64,000 nucleotides of DNA from Escherichia phage vB_EcoM_TH18. Shown here in pieces: positions 1,905-64,000 of this stretch. The position numbers and the translations under genes were made by a program. The stretch lies in the sequence record ON075799. The stretch is one strand, 5' to 3'. Every line of letters begins with the position of its first letter. The first letter of the stretch is position 1. The notes under the pieces are model-generated. The model did not search any database. It saw only the letters and a list, made by a program, of their open reading frames with translations, and had not been told where the DNA came from.

Positions 1905-2160
1905 TATTGTCCCCTCAGTTCGCTACACTGAGGCGGTGTGCCAAGACACCCGCCACATGTTTCCATGTGGAACAGACTATATCTTCCATCCTTGGCGTGC
2001 CGTTTGGATCACCAATCGCTTGTGATTCTACTCTCCTACACTCATCGGAGATAGTCGTTACACCCAGATTTTATATTTCCATATTCTGTGGCACGGTATT
2101 TTCCCATAGGGAGTTCCACCGTTATAGGCACGAAGGGCAAGCTATTCACCCTGATGATCT
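1905..2160 (-). mobile_element. putative small group I intron, no ORF (boundaries approximate)
   Basis: ~250 nt non-coding insert between exons; same R-like (gatagtcgtt ~2052) and S-like (agactatatc ~1975) motifs as the other three intervening sequences. Confidence 0.45.
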
Positions 2161-3583: not shown

Positions 3584-3877
3584 CTATTTATCTGAAGTAA
3601 ATATTGTCTTTACATACTGTTGTAGCGTTCTTAATTTCATACGATCTTCAGCAGCCTTAATGTTGTTTTTCTTGATCACCTCTATAGCATCCGCATTACT
3701 AAGACCACCTGGCAATTTTTCAGGTTCTTTCGGTGGTATCATAGCTTCAGCGGGTGGTCTTGCTAAGATATCGCTTATTATGATCTCTTTTGCAACAGGA
3801 ACAACTCTCTCAGGCGGTGAAGTGCACCCTGTTAACATCAATAATAGAAAAGGAACCATGATGACACACTTTTTCAT
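3584..3877 (-). CDS. o-spanin-like outer-membrane lipoprotein
   Basis: Signal peptide with lipobox LTGC, proline-rich mature part; overlaps the upstream i-spanin-like gene by 4 nt. Confidence 0.55.
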   Translation of the reverse strand: MKKCVIMVPFLLLMLTGCTSPPERVVPVAKEIIISDILARPPAEAMIPPKEPEKLPGGLSNADAIEVIKKNNIKAAEDRMKLRTLQQYVKTIFTSDK

Positions 3878-4275
3878 TTCACCCCCAGACTATCGTTATA
3901 AATATCAACAAACTGGTTATCTAGGCAAACCTGTTTTCCTGCTTGTGTTTTGCTATAACTTTTAACCTTTTTATCAAGGTCTTCTTTCAGTTGGTTATTA
4001 ATTTCTCTCTCTTTCACCAACATGGTTGACAACTCATCGATCTTATCCTGCTGTTGTTTTTTAAAAGCGTTGTTGTGATCTCTAACTTGCTGGTTAATCC
4101 TCTCCCATTTAAGGTCAGTATCGCTGACACCTGCGTTGTAGGATGATGTTAACTGGTCATTATACCAATGCTTTATCTCCACAACACCCCAAACGAGCAT
4201 CACACAACACAAAACGACACCTATCTGTTTTATGTTCTTAGAAAAGAAAGTTAACAGCGTTTTAAACCATATCAT
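3874..4275 (-). CDS. i-spanin-like protein (N-terminal TM helix plus coiled coil)
   Basis: 133 aa; hydrophobic N-terminus (IGVVLCCVMLVWGVV) followed by charged heptad-rich region. Confidence 0.55.
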   Translation of the reverse strand: MIWFKTLLTFFSKNIKQIGVVLCCVMLVWGVVEIKHWYNDQLTSSYNAGVSDTDLKWERINQQVRDHNNAFKKQQQDKIDELSTMLVKEREINNQLKEDLDKKVKSYSKTQAGKQVCLDNQFVDIYNDSLGVK

Positions 4276-15382: not shown

Positions 15383-15452
15383 CGAGAATGCTACTCATAA
15401 CACCACACAATGTCAACCCCTCCCATATGTCCCCATTTCAGGGACATTATGA

Positions 15453-50545: not shown

Positions 50546-52861
50546 TTACAATGCACAACTCTCGCAGTACGGATCTTCAACTGAACTGTCTGCAATCAAA
50601 GGATAGTTCTTTTTAGTTTCTTCCTCAGCTTGTCTCTTCGCGTGAAGTTCCGCTGTCAAGGAATCACCAGCACCAACCTTAGAATTTAGATAGTACCACG
50701 TTTTCATACCCACTTTTGTTGCTTTGATAAGATACCCTAGCTGCTCTTTCATAGAAATCTTACCATCTTTTTGTTTGGTGTAATCAAGGTAGAGATCTGC
50801 ACTGATCGTCTGCCCAGTAAATTTCTGGAATAGAGCATAGATATCTATCATGTCATTTGTTGGTGTATCCCAAGCAGATGTGTAGTAATCTTTTAATTCT
50901 TCATAATCAGGGACAATAAAAAGAACCTGACCTTGAGGTGATTTTTTAAAGATCACATGATCACGAACAGGGTATATACCATTTGTTGTGTTTGTTGCCA
51001 AAGACGAACTTTCGTTCGGCATGTAGGCTTCCAGCACACTGTTCCTTATTCCACCAAAATCAATAATCTCCTTGCGTAATGACTCCCAATCCTGTTTGAG
51101 TGTGGGATCCTCCACCACACTATCAATCGCCTTATTATAGGTATCGATCGGTAGCCAGCCAGACGGGTATTTTGTTTTACCAATCCACTCACAAACACCA
51201 CGTTCTTTAGCTAACCGCAGACTTGCCTTATGAAGGCTGTAGCTGTGCAATTCAGCTAAATCATGTACCAACTGTTTGCTCTCAGGAGAACCATAAGGAA
51301 CTCTATGTGTCGCAATATAATGTGCCACGTTTGTGATGCCAACACCAATAGACCTGCGTTTTTTAACTGTACTCTCCATATTTTCATACGGATAGGTCAT
51401 GATATCCATCACGTTGTCAATCATGAGTACGGTATAGTATGCCACATCTTCATATTCTTCTGGTTTAACTCTGCCAGCAACCAACGAGGCCAAGAAGCAC
51501 AAAGCAACTTCACCATCTTCAGCATCATACTTGAAGAGGTTACGCATATCTGAATAACCTTTTGTTGGGAGTGATATCTCACAACACAGATTGCTTGAAT
51601 AAATAATTTCCTTAAATGGGGTGTGTCTATTCATCTCGTCAGTCCAGTAAACATAAAGTCTACCAGTTTCTGTACGCTGGGTAATTATCTCTATTGCCAA
51701 ATCTCTTGCCTTAATCCAAGTTTTTGGAATAGAAGCATCTTTGGCAATCTTATCAACTTCAGAGTCAAACTCCTCCATTGTCATAGTGAACATCCCATCA
51801 TGGAGTTGTGGGGCATCTTTATAAGATACCAGCATCCAATCCAAGTTTTTCGCAACACGATTGACAAAAGATTTGTTAATACCAACGGAATAATCCATTG
51901 TGTTAATTCGCTTAGATGTCACAGTCATAGGGTTACGTAAGCGAATTAATTCATCAATTTGTGGATCAAGAGCTAAGAAAGAAACTGTTGCTGAACCACC
52001 TCTGGACTGTTGCCTATTCTCTTTTACCCCAGCATCAATACCACGATAGTAAGGTAGTTTGCCCATATGCTTGATTGTGTTCCCTCTAACACCATCACCA
52101 ATAGAGCGAGATGCTAGATAATAACCAATACCAGCTTGATTAACAGTCATCGTATATGCAACTTCTCGTGCAACACCGATGGATTTAGCTGTATCGTCTG
52201 CCTTGATTACACAACATGAAGCATATCCTGTTTTTCCGGTACGAAGCCCGTTAAGGTATGGTGTCGGGGCGTTAATCTTAAGATCAGACAAATATGTGTA
52301 CAATTTTGTCACATCTTTAATACGACGAGCCTTGGGCATATTCTTCATAACTGCCATTGCCATCCCCATAAACATCATCTGCGGGGATTCAAAAAGGATG
52401 TCATTAACAGCGTCCTTAATACCGTACTTATCACGGAACTGTTTCAATACAGCATACCCATAAGACAGGTCTTTACTATGGTCGATAACAGCTTCTAATG
52501 CTGTTAGTTCCAAACCTGTGTATTTCATATCTTCCCAATAGCCTGAATCAACCATACGGTGATAGAAATTTGGCAAACTAGGAATTTTTGTGAACCCACC
52601 AAAGGCTTCTTTATAAATCTGCCCGACTAAAACTCTACCAGCCATCCGTGCATGTGCTTCATCTTTACGGCTAATACACGCATCTATAATAGCTTGGTTA
52701 ACTTCTTTTGTTGTGCAACCATCATATAATCTTCTATATGCGTCAAGAGCAATGTGTGACCAGTTGCCGTTGCCATCATCACCAAAAATGGCAGCTTTGT
52801 TAAGACGCTCAGGATCGAACACTACCTCTGACCCATCGCTTTTAATAACTTTAGTAATCAA
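50546..52861 (-). CDS. nrdA: ribonucleotide reductase large subunit (class I alpha)
   Basis: 771 aa; ATP cone VIKSDGSEVVFDPERLNKA and catalytic region NLCCEISLPT. Confidence 0.9.
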   Translation of the reverse strand: MITKVIKSDGSEVVFDPERLNKAAIFGDDGNGNWSHIALDAYRRLYDGCTTKEVNQAIIDACISRKDEAHARMAGRVLVGQIYKEAFGGFTKIPSLPNFYHRMVDSGYWEDMKYTGLELTALEAVIDHSKDLSYGYAVLKQFRDKYGIKDAVNDILFESPQMMFMGMAMAVMKNMPKARRIKDVTKLYTYLSDLKINAPTPYLNGLRTGKTGYASCCVIKADDTAKSIGVAREVAYTMTVNQAGIGYYLASRSIGDGVRGNTIKHMGKLPYYRGIDAGVKENRQQSRGGSATVSFLALDPQIDELIRLRNPMTVTSKRINTMDYSVGINKSFVNRVAKNLDWMLVSYKDAPQLHDGMFTMTMEEFDSEVDKIAKDASIPKTWIKARDLAIEIITQRTETGRLYVYWTDEMNRHTPFKEIIYSSNLCCEISLPTKGYSDMRNLFKYDAEDGEVALCFLASLVAGRVKPEEYEDVAYYTVLMIDNVMDIMTYPYENMESTVKKRRSIGVGITNVAHYIATHRVPYGSPESKQLVHDLAELHSYSLHKASLRLAKERGVCEWIGKTKYPSGWLPIDTYNKAIDSVVEDPTLKQDWESLRKEIIDFGGIRNSVLEAYMPNESSSLATNTTNGIYPVRDHVIFKKSPQGQVLFIVPDYEELKDYYTSAWDTPTNDMIDIYALFQKFTGQTISADLYLDYTKQKDGKISMKEQLGYLIKATKVGMKTWYYLNSKVGAGDSLTAELHAKRQAEEETKKNYPLIADSSVEDPYCESCAL

Positions 52862-53136
52862 ACATTCTCCTTCTCTTCTACATCATATCTAGCCAAAAAT
52901 AAAGCAGCTTCATCATTAAGATCTTCTTTTAAAGAGTCTCTATCATCTGCAAGGATATTAATTACTTTTCCTGTGTATGCGTCATAATAAACATCATCAT
53001 ACATCTTGCTATCATCTGTAAGATCATTAAAATATAACCACCCAGCATAATGATATTTATCATCAAAACCGCGATCTTTCCATTTGGTCTTTTCTCGTGC
53101 CATTAATCCCCCAGACCAAACATATCGCCAAGCCAT
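52858..53136 (-). CDS. hypothetical protein (92 aa)
   Basis: ORF from six-frame track; coupled to nrdA. Confidence 0.5.
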   Translation of the reverse strand: MAWRYVWSGGLMAREKTKWKDRGFDDKYHYAGWLYFNDLTDDSKMYDDVYYDAYTGKVINILADDRDSLKEDLNDEAALFLARYDVEEKENV

Positions 53137-53579
53137 GATTCATCTTTAGAATCAAAGTTAATATCTAAACTCTGCTTTCTTTCTCCACGCTTTGTGTATT
53201 TTCTGACATTGACTTTTTCTGTCACAGGAAGATCATACGGAAGATCAATAACAAATTCCATATCCTTTTCTGAATACATTTCTACATCAAGAATATCTAT
53301 GCCATTATAAATTCCTGCGTATGGATAATCATTCCTCATATCACCTACAAAAATTGTTGTTTTTCTATAGGTTGATGGGTAGTTGGCACAACGAACATTC
53401 TTGTTGTGTAGCATTGTAATATGTTTAGGAAGTCCATCAGCATCACTGACTTGGAATCCAATAGCATACAACGCAGCACGAAGTTGATTTTCTTCTTTAA
53501 TATTAAAACCGGGGATTGTGCGAAGAAAGTCCAGCGTCACAGAAATATGCTGTGTAGGTTTACGTTTTGTTTTTTTCAT
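53103..53579 (-). CDS. hypothetical protein (158 aa)
   Basis: ORF from six-frame track, downstream of a sigma70-like promoter. Confidence 0.5.
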   Translation of the reverse strand: MKKTKRKPTQHISVTLDFLRTIPGFNIKEENQLRAALYAIGFQVSDADGLPKHITMLHNKNVRCANYPSTYRKTTIFVGDMRNDYPYAGIYNGIDILDVEMYSEKDMEFVIDLPYDLPVTEKVNVRKYTKRGERKQSLDINFDSKDESWLGDMFGLGD

Positions 53580-53638
53580 ATATTCTCCACCACATTTGCA
53601 AACTAGGGGACAAATAGCCCCCTATACATCATGCAAAC

Positions 53639-53668
53639 ATAATATGTATTTTTATTAAATTTGTCAAC
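53639..53668 (-). promoter_or_regulatory. sigma70-like promoter (TTGACA, ~18-nt spacer, TATTAT)
   Basis: Consensus hexamers on the minus strand ~50 nt upstream of the ATG at 53579; GC hairpin in the UTR. Confidence 0.55.
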
Positions 53669-55553
53669 CTGCCACAACATTGTTGGGAACTAGTTGGCGG
53701 TATTGTACCCACCCACGTAGATTTCCTGACCACATGTTTCCCTTTCTATCCATATGCGTCACGCCGTCACTTGCCTGTCCATCCCACCACAATGAAGCCT
53801 CATTCTCCAACATAGGTGTTGCAACATGCTCAAAAGGAGAGGCGTGTACCTTATCACCACTTGTTAACTTTTTATAGATATCAAGGGCTTTATCCTTAGT
53901 GTTGTTAAGCACGCGATAAGAGACTTGTGCACAACAAGACACAGAAATAGCAATTGCCTCATCAACACGTAGCATCACAGGTTCGTTGTTTTCGTCTAAA
54001 ACACAATACCCCTGAAATTCTCCAACACCCTCACCAACCTCAACTGTGTAGAGGTGCGCTACATATGGGGTGTGCCACTGCCCAGGTTCTAATGGTTCAG
54101 GTACAGACTCATCCACAGCTTGTTTCATGAGAGATGCTAGTTTATGGATCGTCGGGTCCGCATCTCCATCTTCGCGCAGATGGAAAAAATTATTCCAATC
54201 CGTAGCAGTAACAACAGTTTTCATCCTCTGGAACGGTTCCAGTAAGCGATTTGCCACCTGCTTGTGGTATCCAGCTTGTGAGTATGCTTCGGCAAAACGT
54301 GATGCACTTAAAGCCGCCAATTGCCACCAATCCTCTGGGGAATATCCAGCATCTATTTCAGCATTGTGATTACCATCATCTTGCATACCAGGTTTATTCT
54401 TACCAAATTGAACAGGCATGGCAGGATTTTTTCGTACTTGCTCAATCATCTTAGAGATTGGAATTGCTCTGCTACTCATGGCATTCCTGCTAAACAGTCT
54501 ATGCGTCATAAGTTCACAGTTCCCACTGATAAATACGACACCTTCCCTTCGAACAACCACGTAGGAGGTGTCTACACTTACACAATACACCTTCCCTACA
54601 TAGTCCTCATACTCGAAGATATCTTTATCCTGCCTTAGACTAATGTAGTTCGTAACTTTAAATGAGCATTTATACAGAGAGCCATACTTACGAATATTCA
54701 CAGAGTCACCATTCAGGTGAGCTAACACCTGAATTTGGTTAATCAGTGTTTTGGATGTGGTGTTATACTCCATGTTGTCAATATTGCCGTCTGAGAGTAG
54801 CAATGCTCTCTTAAATAAGCGGTACTGCTCCTTATTTAACCCTCTGATATATTTTGGTAATTTTTTCTCCCCTTCTCCAGTGTAACATGCTTCTGTTAAT
54901 GGGTTTTTATTAAAACTGATAACTATATCGTCCCCATATATAGAGGTGCTATATTCGTATCCACACTCTTCAAGGATACGTGTAACTTCCTGTACCTTCC
55001 GAGACTTTTTAAAGTGGAAGTTTGCCTTATTCCCCTTTTCTGGGGTATGCCCATCAGCAGCAAACCAAACACAAAATTCAATCTCCGCATCAGAAAGGTC
55101 ACACTTTGCATCCATTACCCCAGACTGCTCGATACGTAATGTTCCATAGTCTCCTACAAGTTCCTCAGCAAGAATCGTCTTACTTACAAATTTACCCCCA
55201 GTGGTCCTTTTTTTTTTCGTAAGGACTCGATGCTTGTCTGTAACAAGCATGGGGAACTTCTTCTTGTTCAGAGATACCATCCGATGACGACCTTCGTTCT
55301 CTATGTGTGCGGATGGGGTTACAAAGCTAATAGCTCCTGTTGTATCATCATACTGTGCTACCTTAGCATTGAGTGCAAATACTTCCCTGAAAGATCTGAA
55401 CTCTGGCAATTCCGAGTTAATCTGACTGAGTATCTCTGTCTTCTCGTCAAAGCAGTGAATAATGCGAGGGTATTCCAACTCAAAAGTGGTAATTCTGATA
55501 CCTTGTGGGGAAATACTGTCAGCTACGATATGTACAGAAATCTGATTATTCAT
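53664..55553 (-). CDS. thyX: ThyX-like (flavin-dependent thymidylate synthase family) protein containing an in-frame intein
   Basis: Extein motifs ELMTHRLFSRNAMSSR (RHR-x7-S-x-R spacing), NFFHLR and SPFEH; 312-aa insert with intein and LAGLIDADG features. Confidence 0.55.
   Translation of the reverse strand: MNNQISVHIVADSISPQGIRITTFELEYPRIIHCFDEKTEILSQINSELPEFRSFREVFALNAKVAQYDDTTGAISFVTPSAHIENEGRHRMVSLNKKKFPMLVTDKHRVLTKKKRTTGGKFVSKTILAEELVGDYGTLRIEQSGVMDAKCDLSDAEIEFCVWFAADGHTPEKGNKANFHFKKSRKVQEVTRILEECGYEYSTSIYGDDIVISFNKNPLTEACYTGEGEKKLPKYIRGLNKEQYRLFKRALLLSDGNIDNMEYNTTSKTLINQIQVLAHLNGDSVNIRKYGSLYKCSFKVTNYISLRQDKDIFEYEDYVGKVYCVSVDTSYVVVRREGVVFISGNCELMTHRLFSRNAMSSRAIPISKMIEQVRKNPAMPVQFGKNKPGMQDDGNHNAEIDAGYSPEDWWQLAALSASRFAEAYSQAGYHKQVANRLLEPFQRMKTVVTATDWNNFFHLREDGDADPTIHKLASLMKQAVDESVPEPLEPGQWHTPYVAHLYTVEVGEGVGEFQGYCVLDENNEPVMLRVDEAIAISVSCCAQVSYRVLNNTKDKALDIYKKLTSGDKVHASPFEHVATPMLENEASLWWDGQASDGVTHMDRKGNMWSGNLRGWVQYRQLVPNNVVAG
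54519..55454 (-). mobile_element. putative intein with LAGLIDADG-type endonuclease domain (residues ~34-345)
   Basis: Begins CFDEKTEIL, block-B-like VTDKHRVLT, LAGLIDADG-like FCVWFAADGHT and FKRALLLSDGNID, ends ...VVFISGN before Cys+1. Confidence 0.6.
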
Positions 55554-55873
55554 TATAAAGCCCCTTCCAGTTTCTTTAGAAAGTCATCTTTAAAACTATC
55601 TACCAGTTTCATATATTCTTCTGCAATCATATCCTCAATAATCCCACGGCGTTCAGAATATTTTTTATCGAAGGAGATCATTTCTTCGATTTCTTCTGCG
55701 GTGAAGATTTTTAAGTGCATATCGTTAATAATTTTAGTAACAAATTCCTCTGTGATACCCAGATCTTCAATTGTGATCCCTGTTCCTTCAAGGCCAAGGA
55801 TAGGGATGATTTTACCTGCACGAGCAATCATTTCAGTCTTAAGGTATTCAAAAGATTCTTTTTTCAACATCAT
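55553..55873 (-). CDS. hypothetical acidic protein (106 aa)
   Basis: ORF from six-frame track; stop overlaps the next start (TAATG). Confidence 0.5.
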   Translation of the reverse strand: MMLKKESFEYLKTEMIARAGKIIPILGLEGTGITIEDLGITEEFVTKIINDMHLKIFTAEEIEEMISFDKKYSERRGIIEDMIAEEYMKLVDSFKDDFLKKLEGAL

Positions 55874-56067
55874 CTTCCTCTCTTTTTTATCTTGAACTTT
55901 GTTTGTGGATCCATGCCAGCTTTAAAAACAAGATATCTTGTAAGAATATCGTTACACATATCGCTGGTAGCTTTAAAAGATATTAAGAAGTCTCCACTCT
56001 CTGTGAAAACTTCTACCCAATCTCCATATTTTACTACAAAATCACCTTTTGTGCATCGTCTAATCAT
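55870..56067 (-). CDS. hypothetical protein (65 aa)
   Basis: ORF from six-frame track. Confidence 0.45.
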   Translation of the reverse strand: MIRRCTKGDFVVKYGDWVEVFTESGDFLISFKATSDMCNDILTRYLVFKAGMDPQTKFKIKKRGR

Positions 56068-56669
56068 GCTATATCTAAAACAAAATCACGTATTGTATAC
56101 CAATCATCTGTTTCAAGGTCTAGGGATGTCTTTAATTCTTCAGACTGATCGTAAGGTGTTTTAAATTTAATTTTAATAACCTCTGGACCAAACTGATTAA
56201 GGAACTCATTCCTATCATCAATAATAACATCAACATCTACCCCAGCTTTATGCTTTGTTGCATAGAAAGCATGACCGGAACCAGGCTCTAGGCTGAAAAA
56301 CTCTTCTGTTTCTCTTTTTAGAAAGCGCACTTTAGATGAAAAATGACCTTTCATGCAATAAGAGACAAAATGATTAAAATGACCAGCTTTAGCCCATGCA
56401 GCCACGGCTTCCACTGCACCGGGGAGAGGTTTCAACTTATCGTAAAGATAAGGATCCTCCCAAAATTCATAAGGACTAAGCTGATGCACCTTCGCAGGTG
56501 GGAAATACTTAGAAACATTGTAATACAGCATACCTTGTGGATTAGGTGGTGGTAATGATAAATCCATTTTAACACCATAAACCTTTTCCAACCACTCAAT
56601 CCAAGGTGTTCCAGAGTCAACAAATGTCAAATCCACATCAATTCCGATCTTAAGCCTGTTCATCCTCAC
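56064..56669 (-). CDS. HAD-family phosphatase (5'-nucleotidase/deoxyribonucleotidase-like)
   Basis: N-terminal motif IGIDVDLTF (DxDxT HAD motif I). Confidence 0.55.
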   Translation of the reverse strand: MRMNRLKIGIDVDLTFVDSGTPWIEWLEKVYGVKMDLSLPPPNPQGMLYYNVSKYFPPAKVHQLSPYEFWEDPYLYDKLKPLPGAVEAVAAWAKAGHFNHFVSYCMKGHFSSKVRFLKRETEEFFSLEPGSGHAFYATKHKAGVDVDVIIDDRNEFLNQFGPEVIKIKFKTPYDQSEELKTSLDLETDDWYTIRDFVLDIA

Positions 56670-57274
56670 TTCACCTCACCAAGACCAGTTACTGAAAAAA
56701 CGAACCACTTATGGATTGATTTGGCACACTCTTCCATCTTACCATCAATATTCTCGAAATCTCTTTCGTACCCTCGGATCCCGTCTAAACAGAGCCAATT
56801 ACGACTATCATTGCCCCAGTCGCAACCTTCTCTGTGAATACGTGCCAAGAAGAATTTACCGCCAGTTTCATAGGCATAGTTGGAAAGCTCAAGAATCTCT
56901 TCTTTAAAACCACCATCTGAAAAAACAACCAACCACGCTTCTTGATAATTTTTCTTTAAGTTCTCTACAGCAGCTTTGCCAAATGCATTCTCACCGAAAA
57001 TTGGTTTAATCACATTCTCTGAACAATGGATCATCCATTCTCGTGGTGAAACATGCTTTCCATCAATTTGCAGGTAAGGGCACGGTTTTTCTTTGTATCT
57101 ACGGTCATAAAGACTGTTCCATAAATCTTTTGAAACTCCAGAAGACCTAACAGCAACTTCAAAAAGCAATTTCTTCACTTCTTCGTGAAAAACACCAGAA
57201 ATATTCTCACACAAATAAGAGCAAATAGCGTCTTTTCCAGCACCAGGTGGTGCATTTAAAACAAGAATATGCAT
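56666..57274 (-). CDS. P-loop kinase (deoxynucleoside monophosphate kinase-like)
   Basis: N-terminal Walker A ILVLNAPPGAGKD; size and context fit a phage dNMP kinase. Confidence 0.55.
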   Translation of the reverse strand: MHILVLNAPPGAGKDAICSYLCENISGVFHEEVKKLLFEVAVRSSGVSKDLWNSLYDRRYKEKPCPYLQIDGKHVSPREWMIHCSENVIKPIFGENAFGKAAVENLKKNYQEAWLVVFSDGGFKEEILELSNYAYETGGKFFLARIHREGCDWGNDSRNWLCLDGIRGYERDFENIDGKMEECAKSIHKWFVFSVTGLGEVK

Positions 57275-57288
57275 TCAATCTCCAACAA

Positions 57289-58263
57289 TCAGATGATATT
57301 GACAAGAGTATTAGCCATCTCTTCTTTGGTGCGGATATTACGTCTATCACGCATAACAGATCCGCAACATTCGCAACGGTAAGCCTGGAATTTTGATAAA
57401 TATGTTGTCCCTACCTTACCATCCATAACTGACAAATTATCAGAATTGCATCTTACGCAACGAAGCCCCACATTATCATCCGGCTCATTAAAAAGCGTAA
57501 CGTTAGGATGTTTTTTCATAAAAGGTCTTACTTTAAGGTAAATACCTTCCAGTGTTGGAATATCACCAATATTATAGTACTCCATTTCCTCAAACGCCTT
57601 AACATCTCCGTGGCAGCATCGTTTCCACAAAGAGATCCCTTCGTGGTGTCTTTTACGAGCTTCCAGTTGAAAGTAGTTACACGCAGCTTCTAAGGAGTTA
57701 GAAGGTAATGAAAAAGCATTCTTTAACTCAGCAAGAGTATCAATAACAATATATGGCGAGGGGGGGTTCATACCATGAAAAGCAAATCTTTGGTTTGCCC
57801 AACCCTTATCAAATTTAGCATTATGTGCAATAAAAATATCACACTCATCCAGAATATGCCACAAATCTTCCACAAGCTCTCTGTCATTATGGATATCTGT
57901 TTTAAATGTTTCGTAGTCAGGTAATTTACGACTTAATATTGCGGGGTTGTCTAACCACTTTCCTGCCCATGTTAACATATATGGTTCGCTCTCTACGTGG
58001 GACGGAGAGATGTTTTCTTTAACTCTTCTAAAAACCCAAGCCAATGTTGGTGCTACTTCCACATCACCAAGAAAAATCTTTGCCCCTGGTTTTTTAGTTA
58101 GGACTTCGACAATCTGTTTTGATGCCCCAGCATTCTGAGCGTGAGCTTTAAGAACTAACCTGATATGGGACTCTTTGCTTTCTTTTCCCAGATACCGACG
58201 AGCTATTTCTCTGTTGCTCAAGCCTTTAGATTTTAACTCTAGAATTTCTTCTGCACTAAGCAT
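57289..58263 (-). CDS. DEDD-family 3'-5' exonuclease with N-terminal HTH-like and C-terminal zinc-ribbon segments
   Basis: Exo motifs IFLGDVEV (DxE) and IAHNAKFD (H-x4-D); C-terminal CVRCN...CECCGS. Confidence 0.65.
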   Translation of the reverse strand: MLSAEEILELKSKGLSNREIARRYLGKESKESHIRLVLKAHAQNAGASKQIVEVLTKKPGAKIFLGDVEVAPTLAWVFRRVKENISPSHVESEPYMLTWAGKWLDNPAILSRKLPDYETFKTDIHNDRELVEDLWHILDECDIFIAHNAKFDKGWANQRFAFHGMNPPSPYIVIDTLAELKNAFSLPSNSLEAACNYFQLEARKRHHEGISLWKRCCHGDVKAFEEMEYYNIGDIPTLEGIYLKVRPFMKKHPNVTLFNEPDDNVGLRCVRCNSDNLSVMDGKVGTTYLSKFQAYRCECCGSVMRDRRNIRTKEEMANTLVNII

Positions 58264-58475
58264 TACACCTCTCTAACAAACTCGATGATATCGTTAACAG
58301 CAAAATCACGGACATCACCCTTGTCGATATCGTATGCCCTCATTAACCATTGGGGTTTTTTGTGATAAGGGGTCGTTCCAAACCACAATTTTGGGTCTAA
58401 AACATTCCTGTACCCACACTTACCTTTCCAGTTTTTATAATAAAAACGTAGAGGGTTATTCAAATCTTCAGCCAA
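58263..58475 (-). CDS. hypothetical protein (70 aa)
   Basis: ORF from six-frame track. Confidence 0.45.
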   Translation of the reverse strand: MAEDLNNPLRFYYKNWKGKCGYRNVLDPKLWFGTTPYHKKPQWLMRAYDIDKGDVRDFAVNDIIEFVREV

Positions 58476-58755
58476 ACTTCTCCTCCGTCTGCCTCACAAA
58501 TTCCTTCAAATACAAGATGATACTATCCTGCTTCTTAGCAGTTGAAGGAATGTCTAATCCAAGGTCTTGTTTTGCTCTTTCGATAATCTTTTCATTAGAG
58601 CATCTTCTTAAGAATTTTAGCATGTCATCCTTATATGAGGGATGTAATGGGTAACTGCTAAAATCCCTCTCAAGATAATCTGCAAGGTTTCTTAATGCTG
58701 TAGACAAAGATGTTTCTGTGTGAAGTGACACATACTTCATCCAAGCCTTCAACAC
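58468..58755 (-). CDS. hypothetical protein (95 aa)
   Basis: ORF from six-frame track. Confidence 0.45.
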   Translation of the reverse strand: MLKAWMKYVSLHTETSLSTALRNLADYLERDFSSYPLHPSYKDDMLKFLRRCSNEKIIERAKQDLGLDIPSTAKKQDSIILYLKEFVRQTEEKFG

Positions 58756-58979
58756 GTAACCTTCGAAAGTGTTAACACACTGACTAAGGACTCCACGGCA
58801 TTTTCCTTCAAAATGGTCATGATCAAGACAAGGGTTGCGAAGTGGCTCACCTAAAACAGGATCAAGACCATTCTGGTCTAAGATCAGATATTCTCTAAAC
58901 TCAGCTATTTGCTTAGGATTTTTTAACCAGAGACTATCGTTGAGAGGGACGCTTACTGCTTTCTTCCTTGGCTTACGTT

Positions 58980-59609
58980 TTACTTTCTGTTGTTTTTGTC
59001 TTTTTCTTGGGATAATTCCTCCAAGAATTTTTTACCTATTAGGTAAGCATCAGCATAATCGGATTTACCAGCAGCCAATGTAATACCATCTAACCAACCA
59101 GGACAAACACAATCAACAGCTCGTATCATGTGTGATTTTTCCATCTTTACTTTACGAGATGAGTATACCTTTTTCCCAGTCTTTTTGTCAAGTCTTTCTT
59201 TAACTATTTCTCTATCTTTTTCTGGGAGTAAGTTTCTGGCAAAAGACTTTAGAGAAGTTGGTGGTATTTTATGTATATTATCAAGCCACTCAGGTGATTT
59301 ATCACATAAGGCATAGACAATGCAATGGAACAAACCTGCCAAATCACGCGTCGCATTCCCTACAGATCCGAAACTCAAATCCTCCATCACATACTTATCT
59401 ATCTTGTACTTATCAACTAATTCCAAGATCTTTTGAACTATGTGTCTGATTTGTTCGTAGACTGTATCGTAATAAACGACATCTTTATTTTTCTTAGACC
59501 TGCTGGAGTTAGATCCTGTTCTAATCATCTCTCTATATATGGGAACACCATGCTCCCATATAACAACAGCGCAGTGGGAGATTGACTGGTCAACCGACAT
59601 CAGTCGCAT
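58980..59609 (-). CDS. RuvC-like Holliday junction resolvase
   Basis: N-terminal MSVDQSISHCAVVIWE, central VMEDLSFG...NATRDLAGL and C-terminal DYADAYLIG resemble RuvC catalytic motifs. Confidence 0.6.
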   Translation of the reverse strand: MRLMSVDQSISHCAVVIWEHGVPIYREMIRTGSNSSRSKKNKDVVYYDTVYEQIRHIVQKILELVDKYKIDKYVMEDLSFGSVGNATRDLAGLFHCIVYALCDKSPEWLDNIHKIPPTSLKSFARNLLPEKDREIVKERLDKKTGKKVYSSRKVKMEKSHMIRAVDCVCPGWLDGITLAAGKSDYADAYLIGKKFLEELSQEKDKNNRK

Positions 59610-59919
59610 CTAAACCCCCGCCAAAATCTTCAACAGCCTGATCTTTAAATAAAACTAAACCACATTCTAAATCACCATGCAACACACTTGTCAGAAGAAC
59701 TAGTCTTTCTCCTTCTACCAACTCACAATCTTCTAAAATCTGTGCAGCAAACATTTTATCCTTGTTTATAAAATCATCCTTAAAAAGGATATGATCACCA
59801 TTCTCATCTTCTACTAATTTCCACTGCCCTGTACCAACCAAGAACTTCGGTTTCAAAGACGATACAGAAAGTGCTTGGGAGTCCCTCATCACAGCTTCTA
59901 TAATCATCACATCTATCAT
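59590..59919 (-). CDS. hypothetical protein (109 aa)
   Basis: ORF from six-frame track. Confidence 0.5.
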   Translation of the reverse strand: MIDVMIIEAVMRDSQALSVSSLKPKFLVGTGQWKLVEDENGDHILFKDDFINKDKMFAAQILEDCELVEGERLVLLTSVLHGDLECGLVLFKDQAVEDFGGGLDATDVG

Positions 59920-61049
59920 AGTACCCCTACCCTTTTCAATTCTGTTGCTAGTGTTGTTTTATCATTGGGGTGTCTTTTCATGTAAACCATCTGGAAAATT
60001 ACAGATGCCCATTGACCAGCACTCATCTTTTTAAGGCTTCCATCCCAAGATGTAAATTCAACCCCGTTTGGAAACCATGCCTTATACTGGTCAACAATTG
60101 CTTCCCACATCTCTTTTTCTGTTCCAAGATGCCCGATCAAATTGAAAGCCGCAGTATCCCCAAATCTTCCGTTTATATCAAAGCACTGGTATGGCTTAAT
60201 ATTGTCAGAAATATCACCACAAAGCATCTGATAACCGAAGAACTTTTTGCCCCAGCCTTTAATCTTACTACCTTCCATCCATATTTCACCCATTGAGTCA
60301 TCAATCAGCATTGGGGTTGGATGTTTCCACTGCTTCTCCCCGTTATCGCGCATCGTATCAAATAGCAGACCTGGTGTTCCTTTCTGATCCTTATCGAAGG
60401 ATGCTATCAAGAAATTAAACTTACCTGTCTTCTTATAATTTTCCCACCCTGTGTACATTAGTACGGATAAGTAATCATCTGCTTCAACACCATTGATGAC
60501 TTTTGCATTGTACTTCTTCTTAACGTAATCTCGCGTTTCCTGTAAAAGCAACGGCCTGAGTAGATCTTCCCTATTACCTTTATATCTTTCTGGGGCAGGA
60601 AGCATAAGACGGAAATTATTCTCGCCACCAAGAACACCAACACCTTGCTTGCTGCTAATTTCAAGATGATCAAAAATAGCATTAATCTTCATTTTTAGGA
60701 GATGCAAGCAATTCTCAACAGGCTCTGGTGTTTGGATATCCTCAACAAGGAAGTCTTCCCTCGTCCATGGTGTAAATGATTTTCCTGCGGCCTTCGCTTT
60801 CATTTCCATATTAGCATTTTGGTCTTTTAGCCAACCGCCTACAACTTTTTTTGTTGATCCCCAAAACTCTGTGCGATTACGAAACTCTTTAGATTTCCCA
60901 GATTTAATATGCGTCGCTCGGATGGTTCTTTTTTCAGAGCCAGCAGCCGATACGTAACATGTTTGATCTAAATCCAAGACAATTACACAATCATTTGTGA
61001 TTTTATCTTTCCAGTTTTTATCGTATGGATACCCCACAACACCTCTCAA
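59916..61049 (-). CDS. 5'-3' exonuclease / flap endonuclease (FEN family)
   Basis: N-terminal VIVLDLDQT and the hallmark GVEADDYLSVL motif. Confidence 0.7.
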   Translation of the reverse strand: MRGVVGYPYDKNWKDKITNDCVIVLDLDQTCYVSAAGSEKRTIRATHIKSGKSKEFRNRTEFWGSTKKVVGGWLKDQNANMEMKAKAAGKSFTPWTREDFLVEDIQTPEPVENCLHLLKMKINAIFDHLEISSKQGVGVLGGENNFRLMLPAPERYKGNREDLLRPLLLQETRDYVKKKYNAKVINGVEADDYLSVLMYTGWENYKKTGKFNFLIASFDKDQKGTPGLLFDTMRDNGEKQWKHPTPMLIDDSMGEIWMEGSKIKGWGKKFFGYQMLCGDISDNIKPYQCFDINGRFGDTAAFNLIGHLGTEKEMWEAIVDQYKAWFPNGVEFTSWDGSLKKMSAGQWASVIFQMVYMKRHPNDKTTLATELKRVGVL

Positions 61050-61483
61050 GTATTACCTAAATAATCTTTCAAATAGCTAACGTCAAGTTCCCATTCCTGA
61101 CGCTTACTTCTCTCACGATACAAAGCAAATGCATCTTCAACATATTTTTCGGCTACATGTTGGGGGATGTTGTTGACTTTCATGAAATGCTTCAAAGCTA
61201 TATGCCCTCTACCTCGTAAACTAGCCAAACCGATATGTTTAACTTCGTGACACGATGGACATAGTGCAATAAGACCTTTCAGGGTGATCTTACCATCTTC
61301 AAAATCCCACACCTCGTGGCATTCAACAGGGTGTTTATGCCCTTTCCCTCCGCAGATTTCACATTTGTAACCTGCCTCTACATAACATTTCTTTCTTACC
61401 TTGTCCCATTCTGATTTTGATAAGTAAGAACGTAGATTGTTGAACCATGCCGTTTTAGGTACTAGCTCAATAGTTAATTTCAT
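61046..61483 (-). CDS. zinc-binding HNH-like protein (145 aa)
   Basis: CEICGGKGHKHPVECHEVWDF and CPSCHEVKH motifs. Confidence 0.45.
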   Translation of the reverse strand: MKLTIELVPKTAWFNNLRSYLSKSEWDKVRKKCYVEAGYKCEICGGKGHKHPVECHEVWDFEDGKITLKGLIALCPSCHEVKHIGLASLRGRGHIALKHFMKVNNIPQHVAEKYVEDAFALYRERSKRQEWELDVSYLKDYLGNT

Positions 61484-61661
61484 TCTTATTTCTCCCGAAG
61501 TACATATGCAAAATTCTCATCCAACTAGGCATTGGTAAAAGAGCCAGTAGAGAACATATCATTAATGCCTTCAAATCATAATCTTGGCAAACAAGCCATC
61601 CAATGCTTACCAAACATAAAGACAGGATAAAACTTAACAACATTATTAACATATTTTTCAT
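61467..61661 (-). CDS. small membrane protein (64 aa)
   Basis: Hydrophobic segments LIMLLSFILSLCLVSIGWL. Confidence 0.45.
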   Translation of the reverse strand: MKNMLIMLLSFILSLCLVSIGWLVCQDYDLKALMICSLLALLPMPSWMRILHMYFGRNKNEINY

Positions 61662-61681
61662 AACAATCTATGTTCTATGTT

Positions 61682-61879
61682 TTAATGAAAGGTTCTTTTT
61701 GATGGGCAGCTTCCAGCACCTTCTTTAACCACTGCTTCTGTTCTATGCCCGTCGCTATAGATACAGACTTTGGAATCACCATCACGATATTCTGCCTCAA
61801 GGCTCAAGGTGTTTGTGGTAGAAATTGCTAGAGGACTAAACAGAAGTGATGAGAAGAGGATAATGTTTTTAGCTTTCAT
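61682..61879 (-). CDS. small secreted protein (~65 aa)
   Basis: Start refined to MKAKNIILFSSLLFSPLAIS (signal-peptide-like). Confidence 0.45.
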   Translation of the reverse strand: MKAKNIILFSSLLFSPLAISTTNTLSLEAEYRDGDSKVCIYSDGHRTEAVVKEGAGSCPSKRTFH

Positions 61880-61892
61880 TTTTACCACCTTT

Positions 61893-61920
61893 GAAAAAGC
61901 CCGATGAAAGCTCATCGGGC
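61893..61920 (-). terminator. rho-independent terminator after the SPFH gene
   Basis: gcccgatga-aagc-tcatcgggc preceded on the plus strand by gaaaaa (U-run on the minus transcript). Confidence 0.65.
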
Positions 61921-61933
61921 ATACGGTATATTA

Positions 61934-62824
61934 TTACTTACCTGTAGGTAATGTTACAAACGGGGCTTGTGCTCCACTAGTCATATACACAGGTGTTACA
62001 CCATTCCATTTATTAATTGCTTCAAGCTGCATAATCTCTGGATTTTTACGCAGGGCAGCACCACGTAATTCAATAGACTCTGCATCACCTTTGGCAATCA
62101 GAATTTTGGCATCTGCCTCGCCTTGTGCCTGTAGACGTTTAGACTCAGCCTCACCACGAGCAGCCTCGATACGTTTCTGAGCTTCAGCTTTCACTTGCTG
62201 AATTTCGTTTTCACGAAGCAGTGCTTTTTGGGTTGCTTCGATCTTAGCATTGATGGAAGCCGTCACCTGTGGTGGATACACCAGATCGTCTGTATAAGAC
62301 AGCTTCACAAGCACAATACCAACAGGATCAAGTTTTTGTTTCAGATGCTTGGTTACACGCTCAAGCAGTTGTGTTTTTCCATCTCCAGCTAGTGTACCGA
62401 TATCCATTGAACCAGCTTCCTTGATCAAGGCATCAGAGATATTCTGGCGAATATTTACCTCTGTAATTTCTTGCACACCTTTACGGTACGTCTGGAAAAT
62501 AGTTGTTACTTTAGAACGATCAACATAATATTCAACACCAATTTTCGCAGAAACTGTCATAGAGTCTTTTGTCTGGAAATTGAATGGTTGATCATAGTTA
62601 TGCAACTGGTTAAAAGTCGGGAACTGATAAATCTCTTCGTTCCAAGTCAGCCAGTATTTACCTACCCCAACTTCTTGTTGTTGGACACCTTTTTCATCGC
62701 CGTACAGGTCAACTTTAACGCCAACGTAACCTGCTGGAACGGTTGCACGCTCACAACCTGTCAGACCAATTGCAGAGACTGCAAGAATACCTGCAAAAAT
62801 AACTCGTTTAATAGATTTAAACAT
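61934..62824 (-). CDS. SPFH/band-7 (stomatin/prohibitin/HflC-like) domain lipoprotein
   Basis: Signal peptide with lipobox LTGC, SPFH-like core, C-terminal coiled coil QKALLRENEIQQVKAEAQKRIEAARGEAESKRLQAQGEADAK. Confidence 0.7.
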   Translation of the reverse strand: MFKSIKRVIFAGILAVSAIGLTGCERATVPAGYVGVKVDLYGDEKGVQQQEVGVGKYWLTWNEEIYQFPTFNQLHNYDQPFNFQTKDSMTVSAKIGVEYYVDRSKVTTIFQTYRKGVQEITEVNIRQNISDALIKEAGSMDIGTLAGDGKTQLLERVTKHLKQKLDPVGIVLVKLSYTDDLVYPPQVTASINAKIEATQKALLRENEIQQVKAEAQKRIEAARGEAESKRLQAQGEADAKILIAKGDAESIELRGAALRKNPEIMQLEAINKWNGVTPVYMTSGAQAPFVTLPTGK

Positions 62825-62837
62825 TAAAACAATCTCC

Positions 62838-63050
62838 TTACTTTTTACGTTTCCCAGTCTTCTTCTTAGAAGACTTGCCTAAGAATACCTTACGCCCCCA
62901 GACAAAAATAATCATCGGAGACACAAGCAACATTGCAAATCCACACACTACCATCAGTGTGTCTTTTGCAGACAGCATTGTTGGCACTACAAATCCAATA
63001 ATGACACAGATAAAAACAAGAATACCAACGCAATTTAAATACGTCTTCAC
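62838..63050 (-). CDS. small membrane protein with basic C-tail (70 aa)
   Basis: Two TM-like segments then KSSKKKTGKRKK. Confidence 0.5.
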   Translation of the reverse strand: MKTYLNCVGILVFICVIIGFVVPTMLSAKDTLMVVCGFAMLLVSPMIIFVWGRKVFLGKSSKKKTGKRKK

Positions 63051-63052
63051 AA

Positions 63053-63370
63053 TTATCCCTCACTACCAAACAAAATATCCACCTCAGCCATTTGTTCGAT
63101 CTTCTCTTCAAGATCTTTACGTTTCTTTCCTGCTTGGTATTGTCGATCAAACAGAGCATTGATCATGGCATTAATAAATTTAGGATCGTAGCCGTGACTT
63201 TCTTTTTCTACTGAAACGATATCTTTAAGCATGTCACCTGCGTCTTTTTGCATGATGCGAGCTTCAACACCTTCCAAGATAACTTTTTTCAGTCGATCGC
63301 ACTCGACAGGATCAGAAGGTAAAGTATTTTTCAGTTCAATTTTTGTTTTAGGCATACGTGGCATTTTCAT
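63053..63370 (-). CDS. hypothetical protein (105 aa)
   Basis: ORF from six-frame track. Confidence 0.5.
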   Translation of the reverse strand: MKMPRMPKTKIELKNTLPSDPVECDRLKKVILEGVEARIMQKDAGDMLKDIVSVEKESHGYDPKFINAMINALFDRQYQAGKKRKDLEEKIEQMAEVDILFGSEG

Positions 63371-63428
63371 CTCCTCTGTCTACGTATAAATTTAATTATA
63401 AAATTTTTATATGGTTTGTCAAGGGGTG

Positions 63429-63635
63429 TTAAAGAAAATCTACACCAACCAAATCACCATCACAACGAGCAATATTATCTGCCACACTGCTAAGTTCATA
63501 GACATAGCAAGTATGAGCATATTTCTTAGCTCCACCCCAACGACGCTTCACAACAAAGCGTACAACACACTTCTGAAACAGTGTTTCTGTACCACCGCGT
63601 TGTTCTATCTTCTTGATAATATCTTCGATATTCAC
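63429..63635 (-). CDS. hypothetical protein (68 aa)
   Basis: ORF from six-frame track; hairpin agcccctcataaggggct downstream. Confidence 0.45.
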   Translation of the reverse strand: MNIEDIIKKIEQRGGTETLFQKCVVRFVVKRRWGGAKKYAHTCYVYELSSVADNIARCDGDLVGVDFL

Positions 63636-63690
63636 TTTTCACCACACTTCCAAAACAAGCCCCTCATAAGGGGCTATTGTTATAGATTGA

Positions 63691-63993
63691 TTATACTTTA
63701 ATAATTGGTTCAACAAAGGTAATTGGTTTCATAATTTTACCATTGCCATCCATAAAAGCAACACGTTCACCGACCTGAGCATGGATTACAGAATTATAAC
63801 GCCCTTTTGAACGGCGTTCAATCTCTTTACATTCAAACTCCAACATCTCAAGTTCTTTATCCTTGTAGTCAGGATATTTAACAAGTAGTTGTGTGATTGT
63901 TGGGAATTTAGAGTCGTTGGAATTAAGAACCTCTTCCATATTGTATCCAAGATTGATATCCAAATTATAGCATAAAGCCACAACTTGTTTCAA
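63691..63993 (-). CDS. hypothetical protein (100 aa)
   Basis: ORF from six-frame track near window end. Confidence 0.45.
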   Translation of the reverse strand: MKQVVALCYNLDINLGYNMEEVLNSNDSKFPTITQLLVKYPDYKDKELEMLEFECKEIERRSKGRYNSVIHAQVGERVAFMDGNGKIMKPITFVEPIIKV

Positions 63994-64000
63994 AATCTCT

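Follow-up and report, generated by a model that had tools for sequence, protein, structure and literature searches.

What does a bacteriophage do with a membrane-anchored protein of the SPFH/Band_7 superfamily? The question is raised by a gene at 61934..62824 on the minus strand of a 64,000-nucleotide stretch of Escherichia phage vB_EcoM_TH18 (record ON075799), called the window below. Our literature searches found no experimental function for phage SPFH proteins, only speculation. As early as 2006, such genes were recorded in the T4-like phages RB43, 44RR, and Aeh1 (PMC1524935); the printed suggestions include an effect on lysogeny, on the model of HflK/C (PMC8540360), and help with Sec-dependent export (PMC7150955), and a 2026 paper calls the presence of the gene in phage genomes unclear and suggests adsorption or DNA entry (PMC13239085). 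The locus studied here is best explained, as far as its sequence indicates, as a two-gene envelope module within an early transcription unit, in which the SPFH lipoprotein is paired with a small membrane protein of two transmembrane (TM) segments. We consider it somewhat probable that the two build, early in infection, a homo-oligomeric dome that resembles HflK/C or prohibitin and lies on the periplasmic side of the inner membrane. A preliminary description of the stretch had proposed a phage-encoded lipoprotein with a lipobox signal peptide, a stomatin/prohibitin-like core, a long C-terminal coiled coil, and its own terminator; absent from it were the place of the gene as the third of a promoter-to-terminator unit, the conserved small partner, and the fact that the family is common and already annotated. 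The roles it had suggested, namely superinfection exclusion, lysis timing, or membrane remodeling, are speculative, and the literature searches yielded no experimental support for any of the three.

The gene and the parts of its product are the following.

61934..62824, minus strand: SPFH/Band_7 lipoprotein gene, ATG start, 296 amino acids, stop codon within the end coordinate
62753..62824, minus strand: lipoprotein signal peptide (amino acids 1-23) and lipobox Cys24 (L-T-G-C), with Glu as the +2 residue, read from the sequence
62180..62743, minus strand: Band_7/SPFH domain, amino acids 28-215, by Pfam
62045..62272, minus strand: single long helix, amino acids 185-260 (the "wall" helix of SPFH cages), in the AlphaFold2 model
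61937..62011, minus strand: C-terminal tail, amino acids 272-296, from the AlphaFold2 model and the alignment

The protein begins with MFKSIKRVIFAGILAVSAIGLTGC-ERATVPAG and places Cys24 in the lipobox L-T-G-C, after a basic n-region (MFKSIKR) and a hydrophobic h-region (VIFAGILAVSAIG). We defined a lipobox as [LVI][ASTVI][GAS]C within the first ~35 residues, following a basic n-region and a hydrophobic h-region, and by this definition the protein is a predicted substrate of signal peptidase II. When all open reading frame (ORF) starts of the 64-kb window were scanned, the SPFH ORF was the sole match to the strict pattern, and the relaxed pattern added the o-spanin gene at 3584..3877 and two matches resembling chance. 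The Pfam search that had been named beforehand as a check gave PF01145 Band_7 with an E value of 2.4e-20 and 73.7 bits, three times the gathering cutoff of 23.6, so that the proposed identity stands. The match covers residues 28-215 and profile positions 2-176 of 176, essentially the full profile. Cys24 lies four residues ahead of the start of this match, which would provide the N-terminal membrane anchor of the SPFH superfamily; because the predicted lipid-modified Cys is so close to the domain, the whole mature protein is expected in the periplasm, as in HflK/C. The protein also falls into PHROG 200 "lipoprotein" (E 2.4e-87, 294.5 bits, residues 2-294). A tblastn search of the SPFH protein against the whole window returned only itself; the window thus holds a single SPFH gene, and any assembly would therefore be homo-oligomeric. 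The encoding stretch matches Escherichia phage 18-1-2 (OK136181.1; Vequintavirinae, Avunavirus in the record) with 100% identity, which bears out that the gene is phage-encoded; in that record it is labeled "hypothetical protein". At 15447/15448 of the window, the end of scaffold OK136180.1 meets the start of OK136181.1, both of phage 18-1-2; by this comparison, the window does not represent a single uninterrupted natural sequence.

The AlphaFold2 (AF2) model of the SPFH protein was built on a 72-sequence alignment and has a mean predicted local distance difference test score (pLDDT) of 81.8. In this model, the signal-peptide helix precedes an α/β SPFH domain (26-177), with strands at 26-101 and 170-177 and helices at 103-165. 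The domain is followed by an uninterrupted 76-residue helix (185-260) rich in Ala, Glu, Lys, and Gln, a short helix (262-271), and a disordered tail. Residues 277-296 have a pLDDT below 50 in the monomer model, and W273, G275, P278, and P288, which lie in this low-confidence tail, are invariant across the 72 homologues; the tail is a candidate cap or oligomerization segment. In a Foldseek comparison of the model with the PDB, the best of the full-length matches were prohibitin (8rrh, E 1e-14), HflC (7vhq_G, E 2e-14), and HflK (7vhq_E, E 7e-13), followed by stomatin (E ~1e-12), erlin (E ~1e-11), QmcA (8z5g, E 1.6e-9), and flotillin (E ~1e-9). All of these targets, with E values ranging from 1e-14 to 1e-8, come from cage or ring structures. 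When only sequences are compared, HflC 7vhq (E 3.6e-4) and QmcA are the closest chains of solved structure. The predicted model thus has both the α/β SPFH fold and the long helix, and the protein is predicted to possess the full protomer architecture of the cage formers, namely anchor, SPFH domain, wall helix, second helix, and conserved tail. The stomatin/prohibitin-like core is borne out by both the Band_7 match and the agreement of the predicted fold with SPFH cage protomers, and the lipobox signal peptide by LTGC with Cys24 behind its basic and hydrophobic regions. As for the long C-terminal coiled coil, the long helix at 185-260 is there, and the term "coiled coil" is only loosely right, as this is the wall helix in solved SPFH cages.

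The SPFH gene is not alone between its promoter and its terminator. The signals and genes around it are listed below.

63395..63422, minus strand: sigma-70 promoter, TTGACA-16 nt-TATAAT, 12/12 matches, heading the three-gene unit
63053..63370, minus strand: 105-amino-acid protein, PHROG 639 "transcriptional regulator" (E 6.8e-19), first gene of the unit
62838..63050, minus strand: 70-amino-acid two-TM membrane protein, PHROG 1130 "membrane protein" (E 3.9e-20), second gene
62834..62839, minus strand: Shine-Dalgarno sequence AAGGAG of the SPFH gene, 9 nt ahead of the ATG, read from the sequence
61899..61920, minus strand: intrinsic terminator hairpin with a 9-bp stem and GCTT loop, then TTTTTC, closing the unit
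61682..61879, minus strand: 65-amino-acid protein with a signal peptide and two Cys, PHROG 4641, past the terminator and syntenic in phage PVP-SE1

The order on the minus strand is a terminator (63675..63658), a 68-amino-acid ORF, the promoter, the 105-amino-acid gene, the 70-amino-acid gene, the SPFH gene, and the terminator. The Shine-Dalgarno sequence of the SPFH gene overlaps the TAA stop codon of the 70-amino-acid gene (TAAGGAG). The closing terminator, GCCCGATGA-GCTT-TCATCGGGC followed by TTTTTC on the minus strand, begins 14 nt past the SPFH stop codon and has nine pairs, six of them G-C; this hairpin at 61920..61899 is the terminator proposed earlier, and it lies just beyond the stretch that the preliminary description had covered. 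Seven terminator-like sites occur in the 2.4-kb region versus 1.6 expected. The Band_7, lipobox, long-helix, and terminator features are not chance. In PVP-SE1, a promoter is annotated at the syntenic place, upstream of gene 115, to which the 105-amino-acid protein has 75% identity. To judge from these signals, the SPFH gene does not stand alone but closes a three-gene early-type unit for the host RNA polymerase. The hairpin at 63658..63675 is symmetric and GC-rich (AGCCCCTTATGAGGGGCT) and scores as a terminator on both strands; such a bidirectional hairpin would insulate the unit from the preceding genes.

The 70-residue product of the second gene has two hydrophobic helices, a connecting loop VPTMLSAKDT, and a C-terminal tail with a net charge of +10. 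As a two-TM helical protein, it is placed at the inner membrane, and by the positive-inside rule both its N-terminus and its C-terminus are predicted to be cytoplasmic and its conserved loop periplasmic. An AF2 model from a shallow alignment shows a hairpin of two helices, has low confidence (pLDDT 62.7), and is supportive only; the protein matches no family in Pfam, NCBIfam, or PADLOC. The loop of its homologues follows the motif P-x-[ML]-[ILV]-S-x-[KR]-D-[TS], and homologues with this motif stand directly upstream of the SPFH gene in the P2-like phage P88, a lambdoid Klebsiella prophage, PVP-SE1, and the N4-like Erwinia phage Pastis. With the single sequence as query, tblastn reached the Vequintavirinae only (68 records), and a word-indexed protein search found five close relatives. 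Because the reach of such searches is short, a small hidden Markov model (HMM) made from five seeds was run on fetched viral loci, and it recognized the ORF ending at the SPFH start in 74 of the 84. Nine of the ten misses have instead a divergent 64-amino-acid two-TM ORF whose loop reads IPTMLNSSN and whose overlap is ATGA, and in the tenth the SPFH gene is truncated. Of 93 related loci, 89 carry an upstream ORF that is small and hydrophobic; two TM segments are present in 82 of these 89 ORFs, and in 76 the overlap with the SPFH start is exactly 4 nt.

The pairing is kept with Cys-less SPFH variants in lambdoid prophages; it also occurs in a Salmonella prophage and, partly unannotated, on P1-like and RepA-type E. 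coli phage-plasmids. The Kuttervirus PhiSH19, a Salmonella phage, has an unannotated 72-amino-acid two-TM ORF with a different, basic loop and a 4-nt overlap with the SPFH start. Other arrangements are found in Pseudomonas phage PaCe, with the partner two genes upstream of the SPFH gene, and in Caulobacter and Bacillus phages, which carry other small membrane proteins upstream. By its position and motif, the two-TM protein is a near-universal conserved partner, frequently missed by annotators, and its recognition is new here. The overlapping two-TM gene is unannotated in Pastis (locus 2313..2516), NZ_CP027590.1 (locus 2230..2466), and PhiSH19 (locus 1932..2150, minus strand), which looks like a systematic gap in annotation.

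The partner has the gross features of a class II holin (65-70 amino acids, two TM segments, N-in/C-in topology, and a highly basic C-terminus), which brings in a role in lysis timing: the 70-amino-acid protein would be holin- or antiholin-like, and the SPFH cage would confine or release it, thereby setting or delaying lysis. Similar proteins have been proposed as holins in the related genus Certrevirus (PMC7344957), and the Kayvirus SPFH gene mbpS lies beside the holin-like mbpV in the lysis region (PMC7150955). However, neither here nor in the P2-like, lambdoid, and P1-like relatives does the pair occupy the place of a lysis cassette; it belongs to early or replication operons. The promoter matches the sigma-70 consensus of the early type, and the spanins of this phage are 58 kb off, beside the terminase. 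Taken together, a function in lysis timing seems distinctly unlikely. In P88, the pair is situated between cox and gene A; in the Salmonella prophage, between the genes for a single-stranded-DNA-binding protein and DNA polymerase A; and in lambdoids, in a nin-like region. Such positions in the lytic early and replication operons of temperate relatives argue for a role in lytic growth and not in the lysogen. In the P1-like phage-plasmid NZ_CP027590.1 (39424-45197), the SPFH pair lies between tRNA genes and dnaB (ban), a place where phage P1 presumably carries other accessory genes.

On which membrane would the SPFH protein sit? Among ~98 distinct N-termini of the family, ~68 have a lipobox and ~30 have no Cys and begin with a signal-anchor or possibly a plain signal peptide. 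The +2 residues of the ~68 lipobox members are Glu (25), Asp (18), Gly (~10), Ser (5), and a few Asn, Arg, Trp, Phe, His, and Tyr; Asp, Gly, Trp, Phe, and Tyr together account for about half. Asp at +2 (CDRVEPG) was found in the examined copies of two E. coli phage-plasmids and Erwinia phage Pastis. A review (PMC5727369) gives Asp at +2 as a Lol-avoidance signal and states that Glu at this position interacts differently from Asp with phosphatidylethanolamine. The N-termini suggest that members of the family usually sit on the inner membrane, at its periplasmic side; with Glu at +2, the window protein itself may or may not stay there.

The Glu at +2 of the window protein also opens the way to a different reading, in which the product is an outer-membrane or vesicle lipoprotein acting in lysogenic conversion or virulence, modeled on PM0222 of Pasteurella multocida. 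PM0222 is a prophage-encoded HflK/C-like SPFH protein of 25-35 kDa that is found in outer-membrane vesicles, signals through TLR1/2, and is needed for virulence (PMC9872710), and under the classical E. coli rule, as summarized in PMC5727369, Glu at +2 would give no inner-membrane retention. The phage, on the other hand, is a Vequintavirinae myovirus with no lysogeny gene seen near the locus (the whole window was not screened), the unit is early and lytic, the obligate neighbor is an inner-membrane protein, and PM0222 may not be a homologue of this SPFH subfamily. We judge an outer-membrane virulence factor to be very improbable.

For the homo-oligomeric dome on the inner membrane, the following course may be envisaged. 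The 296-residue SPFH protein would be exported, with its predicted lipobox at Cys24 and its mature part facing the periplasm, and would assemble as a homo-oligomer into a dome at the inner membrane, on its periplasmic side. The dome would form with the two-TM partner, which would be roughly equimolar and translationally linked and whose conserved periplasmic loop may dock under the SPFH domains. The membrane patch fenced off in this way might, as a speculative best guess, hold or shield inner-membrane proteins, either the partner itself or host clients such as FtsH-type proteases; speculatively, both the envelope and the turnover of membrane proteins would thereby be maintained in a condition favoring phage development. 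SPFH cages around membrane clients are described for HflK/C-FtsH and QmcA/YbbK-YbbJ, as summarized in PMC13086221, and for stomatin with aquaporin-1 (PMC12407830).

Several points weigh against this dome. The AF2 model is of a monomer only, and the window protein carries Glu and not the canonical Asp at +2, so that Lol sorting in E. coli might deliver it to the outer membrane and so separate it from its partner. Some of the Cys-less relatives may have a cleavable signal peptide, which would weaken the argument for the inner membrane. In Erwinia phage M7, no membrane protein is encoded directly upstream of the SPFH gene; in the Vequintavirinae, the partner and SPFH genes do not overlap, with a gap of 13 nt here and ~140-158 nt in relatives; and the partner evolves fast, with 52% identity to its PVP-SE1 counterpart. 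No sequence evidence ties the SPFH protein to FtsH, the NCBIfam scores for HflK and HflC being far below cutoff, and the client and the physiological role are purely what we infer.

A wider proposal is that the pair is an undescribed phage-borne, NfeD-independent cage system that captures a specific host inner-membrane target early and serves as a general device for host takeover or counter-defense. The target may be FtsH-type quality control, a DNA-entry factor, or a membrane-acting abortive-infection effector. The pair is common to myo-, sipho-, and podoviruses, prophages, and phage-plasmids. We put this proposal forward tentatively and hold it to be doubtful.

How widely is the gene distributed, and how strongly is it held? 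Relatives of the SPFH protein were found by tblastn in 564 phage records, from phages of Pseudomonas, Staphylococcus, Erwinia, Bacillus, Klebsiella, Escherichia, Burkholderia, and Caulobacter and also from haloarchaeal viruses. Their labels include "lipoprotein", "prohibitin family protein", and "band 7 protein", besides the mistaken "serine protease". For the P88 form of the module, matches were found in 737 of 5,426 complete E. coli genomes (about one in seven); about half of the copies are on plasmids, the sampled ones being ~90-110 kb, and the PGAP name is "SPFH domain-containing protein". An exhaustive phmmer search of 1.84 billion cluster representatives gave 198 clusters at E<=1e-30, a number that rose to 3,208 at E<=1e-3, and the SPFH lipoproteins of PHROG 200 are, by sequence similarity, a distinct subfamily of moderate size. 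Taken alone, the gene is ordinary, with a curated phage orthologue group and hundreds of phage records. It belongs to a known, widely annotated phage family, and what is new is the early three-gene unit, the partner, and the unusually strong constraint.

This constraint was seen in a comparison with PVP-SE1, in which the block is syntenic (regulator, two-TM protein, lipoprotein, small secreted protein, HNH endonuclease, and flap exonuclease). Amino acid identities to PVP-SE1 and nonsynonymous divergences (dN) are as follows.

SPFH protein: 90.5% identity, dN 0.058
Flap exonuclease: 82% identity, dN 0.126
HNH endonuclease: 77% identity, dN 0.164
Regulator: 75% identity, dN 0.177
Secreted protein: 70% identity, dN 0.33
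Two-TM partner: 52% identity, dN 0.50

The dN of the SPFH gene is the lowest in the block, and with a synonymous divergence (pS) of 0.70, near saturation, its dN/dS against PVP-SE1 is ~0.03. When a 12-kb query with the replication and nucleotide-metabolism genes was used, the SPFH gene alone of the block gave megablast matches to Seunavirus phages (80-83% nucleotide identity). Recent horizontal acquisition was considered as the cause of this nucleotide conservation and rejected: the whole block is syntenic with PVP-SE1 and the synonymous sites are near saturation, and therefore purifying selection explains the conservation better. The slightly lower pS of 0.70 against 0.75-0.93 leaves a little room for exchange, and the GC content of the gene is only marginally above that of its flanks. 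By these estimates, the SPFH gene is under strong purifying selection in this phage lineage and is the slowest-evolving gene of the block. The PVP-SE1 annotation names rV5 homologues for the neighbors and none for the SPFH gene; the gene is accessory, not core. Escherichia phage Av-05, the nearest named relative there, has 94% identity over the first 20 kb of the window and no megablast match to 52000..64000; the phage may be mosaic, the 120.9-kb Av-05 record may be incomplete, or Av-05 may lack the gene or be divergent in this region.

The other genes of the region are small. The 105-amino-acid gene adjoins the SPFH gene in the Vequintavirinae only and is therefore placed outside the core module. 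Its product matches no Pfam family, and its sole PDB match, UPF0335 (6cfx, E 0.14), which we take to be a GapR-type nucleoid-protein family, is not significant; it may be a small DNA-binding protein. Past the SPFH terminator, two further tiny envelope proteins are encoded at 61467..61879 on the minus strand, the 65-amino-acid PHROG 4641 protein and a 64-amino-acid ORF that matches no family and whose hydrophobic stretches suggest two TM segments. With the SPFH protein and its partner, the early region would hold a cluster of four envelope proteins.

The position of the SPFH gene inside this putative cluster of small envelope proteins, together with the early sigma-70 promoter and the predicted combination of a periplasmic lipoprotein with a small inner-membrane protein, would also suit superinfection exclusion or an envelope barrier. 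An early periplasmic assembly would block DNA entry or envelope penetration by later phages, for instance if an inner-membrane entry factor were covered or sequestered, with a timing and location analogous to those of T4 Imm/Sp and the lipoproteins T5 Llp and phi80 Cor; an accessory gene widespread in temperate and virulent phages is in keeping with this. However, neither protein has a PHROG, Pfam, or PADLOC match to a known exclusion or defense family, and the temperate relatives keep the pair in lytic early operons, where it is not expressed from the prophage. A dome covers a small fraction of the membrane, hence a specific client would be needed, and the very slow evolution of the SPFH gene is ill-suited to an arms-race gene. 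We consider exclusion rather unlikely, and the dome with its partner remains the reading that we prefer.

Other identities were tried for the pair and its members. The order of a membrane protein followed by a lipoprotein is superficially like Rz/Rz1, and several homologues are labeled "serine protease", so that the linked genes might be taken for a spanin pair or the SPFH protein for a protease. A two-component spanin would consist of an i-spanin with one TM segment and a periplasmic coiled coil and of a small, proline-rich o-spanin lipoprotein. Here, the Rz/Rz1 features are distributed the wrong way round: the two-TM protein lacks a periplasmic domain, and the SPFH lipoprotein is a folded protein of 30 kDa. 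The canonical i-/o-spanin pair is elsewhere, at 3584..4275 beside the terminase, as published for rV5 and PVP-SE1 (PMC7344957).

3874..4275, minus strand: i-spanin, 133 amino acids, PHROG 4297 (E 1.8e-47)
3584..3877, minus strand: o-spanin, 97 amino acids, lipobox LTGC then Thr, proline-rich, PHROG 1267 (E 1e-21)

Band_7 is the sole Pfam match of the SPFH protein, and with no protease domain among its Pfam matches, the "serine protease" annotation of the relatives was rejected. Both the spanin and the protease identity can practically be dismissed. A known defense system was sought in PADLOC-DB 2.0 and rejected, the SPFH protein giving a spurious SspF fragment (E 1.3e-3) and three neighbors giving none. 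A link to the "superinfection exclusion protein" of PhiSH19 was likewise rejected; the protein in question is acidic and shows no clear hydrophobic stretch, and its gene does not adjoin the SPFH gene. The stop and start codons of the two spanin genes overlap by 4 nt, and the pair lies beside the terminase and not within a lysis cassette. At 2142..3512 on the minus strand and in the neighboring terminase pieces, matching GenBank records show the large terminase as three pieces plus an HNH homing endonuclease, which suggests that the large terminase is interrupted by an intein or homing endonuclease.

A gene that evolves more slowly than the surrounding replication genes clearly does something useful, and the near-universal two-TM partner turns it into a concrete two-component system that is directly approachable as a pair. 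Solving its role would show what phages use membrane-microdomain cages for and would give the SPFH field a minimal, homo-oligomeric, periplasm-facing model.

Compared with known systems, the closest are the PHROG 200 proteins, which are direct homologues sharing the lipobox, the Band_7 core, the long helix, and the upstream small TM gene. Identity is 90.5% between the window protein and the PVP-SE1 lipoprotein (gene 118), with full synteny, and 47% between the window protein and gp12 of Escherichia phage P88; other examples are those of Escherichia phage 4MG, Klebsiella phage BIS47, Aeromonas phage Gekk3-15 ("SPFH domain-containing lipoprotein"), and Caulobacter phage CcrSwift ("putative band 7 lipoprotein"), and nothing of substance separates them. 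The Kayvirus pair MbpS/MbpV likewise combines a phage SPFH protein with a small basic-tailed membrane protein whose role has only been speculated on, but the host is Gram-positive, the gene is located in the region of the lysis genes, and MbpV has one TM segment (PMC7150955). In E. coli HflK/HflC, the N-terminal anchor and the periplasmic SPFH domain with its helix are the same, and HflK is the best NCBIfam match of the phage protein. However, HflK/HflC is a hetero-oligomer of two TM-anchored paralogues, whereas the phage has one gene with a predicted lipid anchor, and the small two-TM partner has no HflK/C counterpart. Orthology was rejected on the scores, with 43.7 bits for HflK (TIGR01933) against a cutoff of 159.4 and 22.6 for HflC (TIGR01932) against 134.4, and it also fails on the paralogue pair, tblastn having found a single SPFH gene in the window.

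In the SPFH-NfeD operons, such as QmcA(YbbK)-YbbJ and YqiK-YqiJ in E. coli, FloA-NfeD in Bacillus and Staphylococcus, and PH1511-PH1510 in Pyrococcus, the SPFH gene also stands beside a gene for a small membrane protein, and the two products are probably stoichiometric; the QmcA-YbbJ cage consists of 26 heterodimers, as summarized in PMC13086221. The phage partner, in contrast, is a 70-amino-acid hairpin without an NfeD domain, and QmcA faces the cytoplasm whereas the phage protein is predicted to face the periplasm. An NfeD identity of the partner was rejected, as it has no match in Pfam, NCBIfam, or PADLOC and is too short for the C-terminal OB fold. Prohibitin PHB1/PHB2 of the mitochondrial inner membrane differs as a eukaryotic heteromer with a TM or hydrophobic anchor and ~20% sequence identity, but it is the top structural match, it shares the size (~270-300 amino acids) and architecture of the phage protein, and it faces a compartment topologically equivalent to the periplasm.

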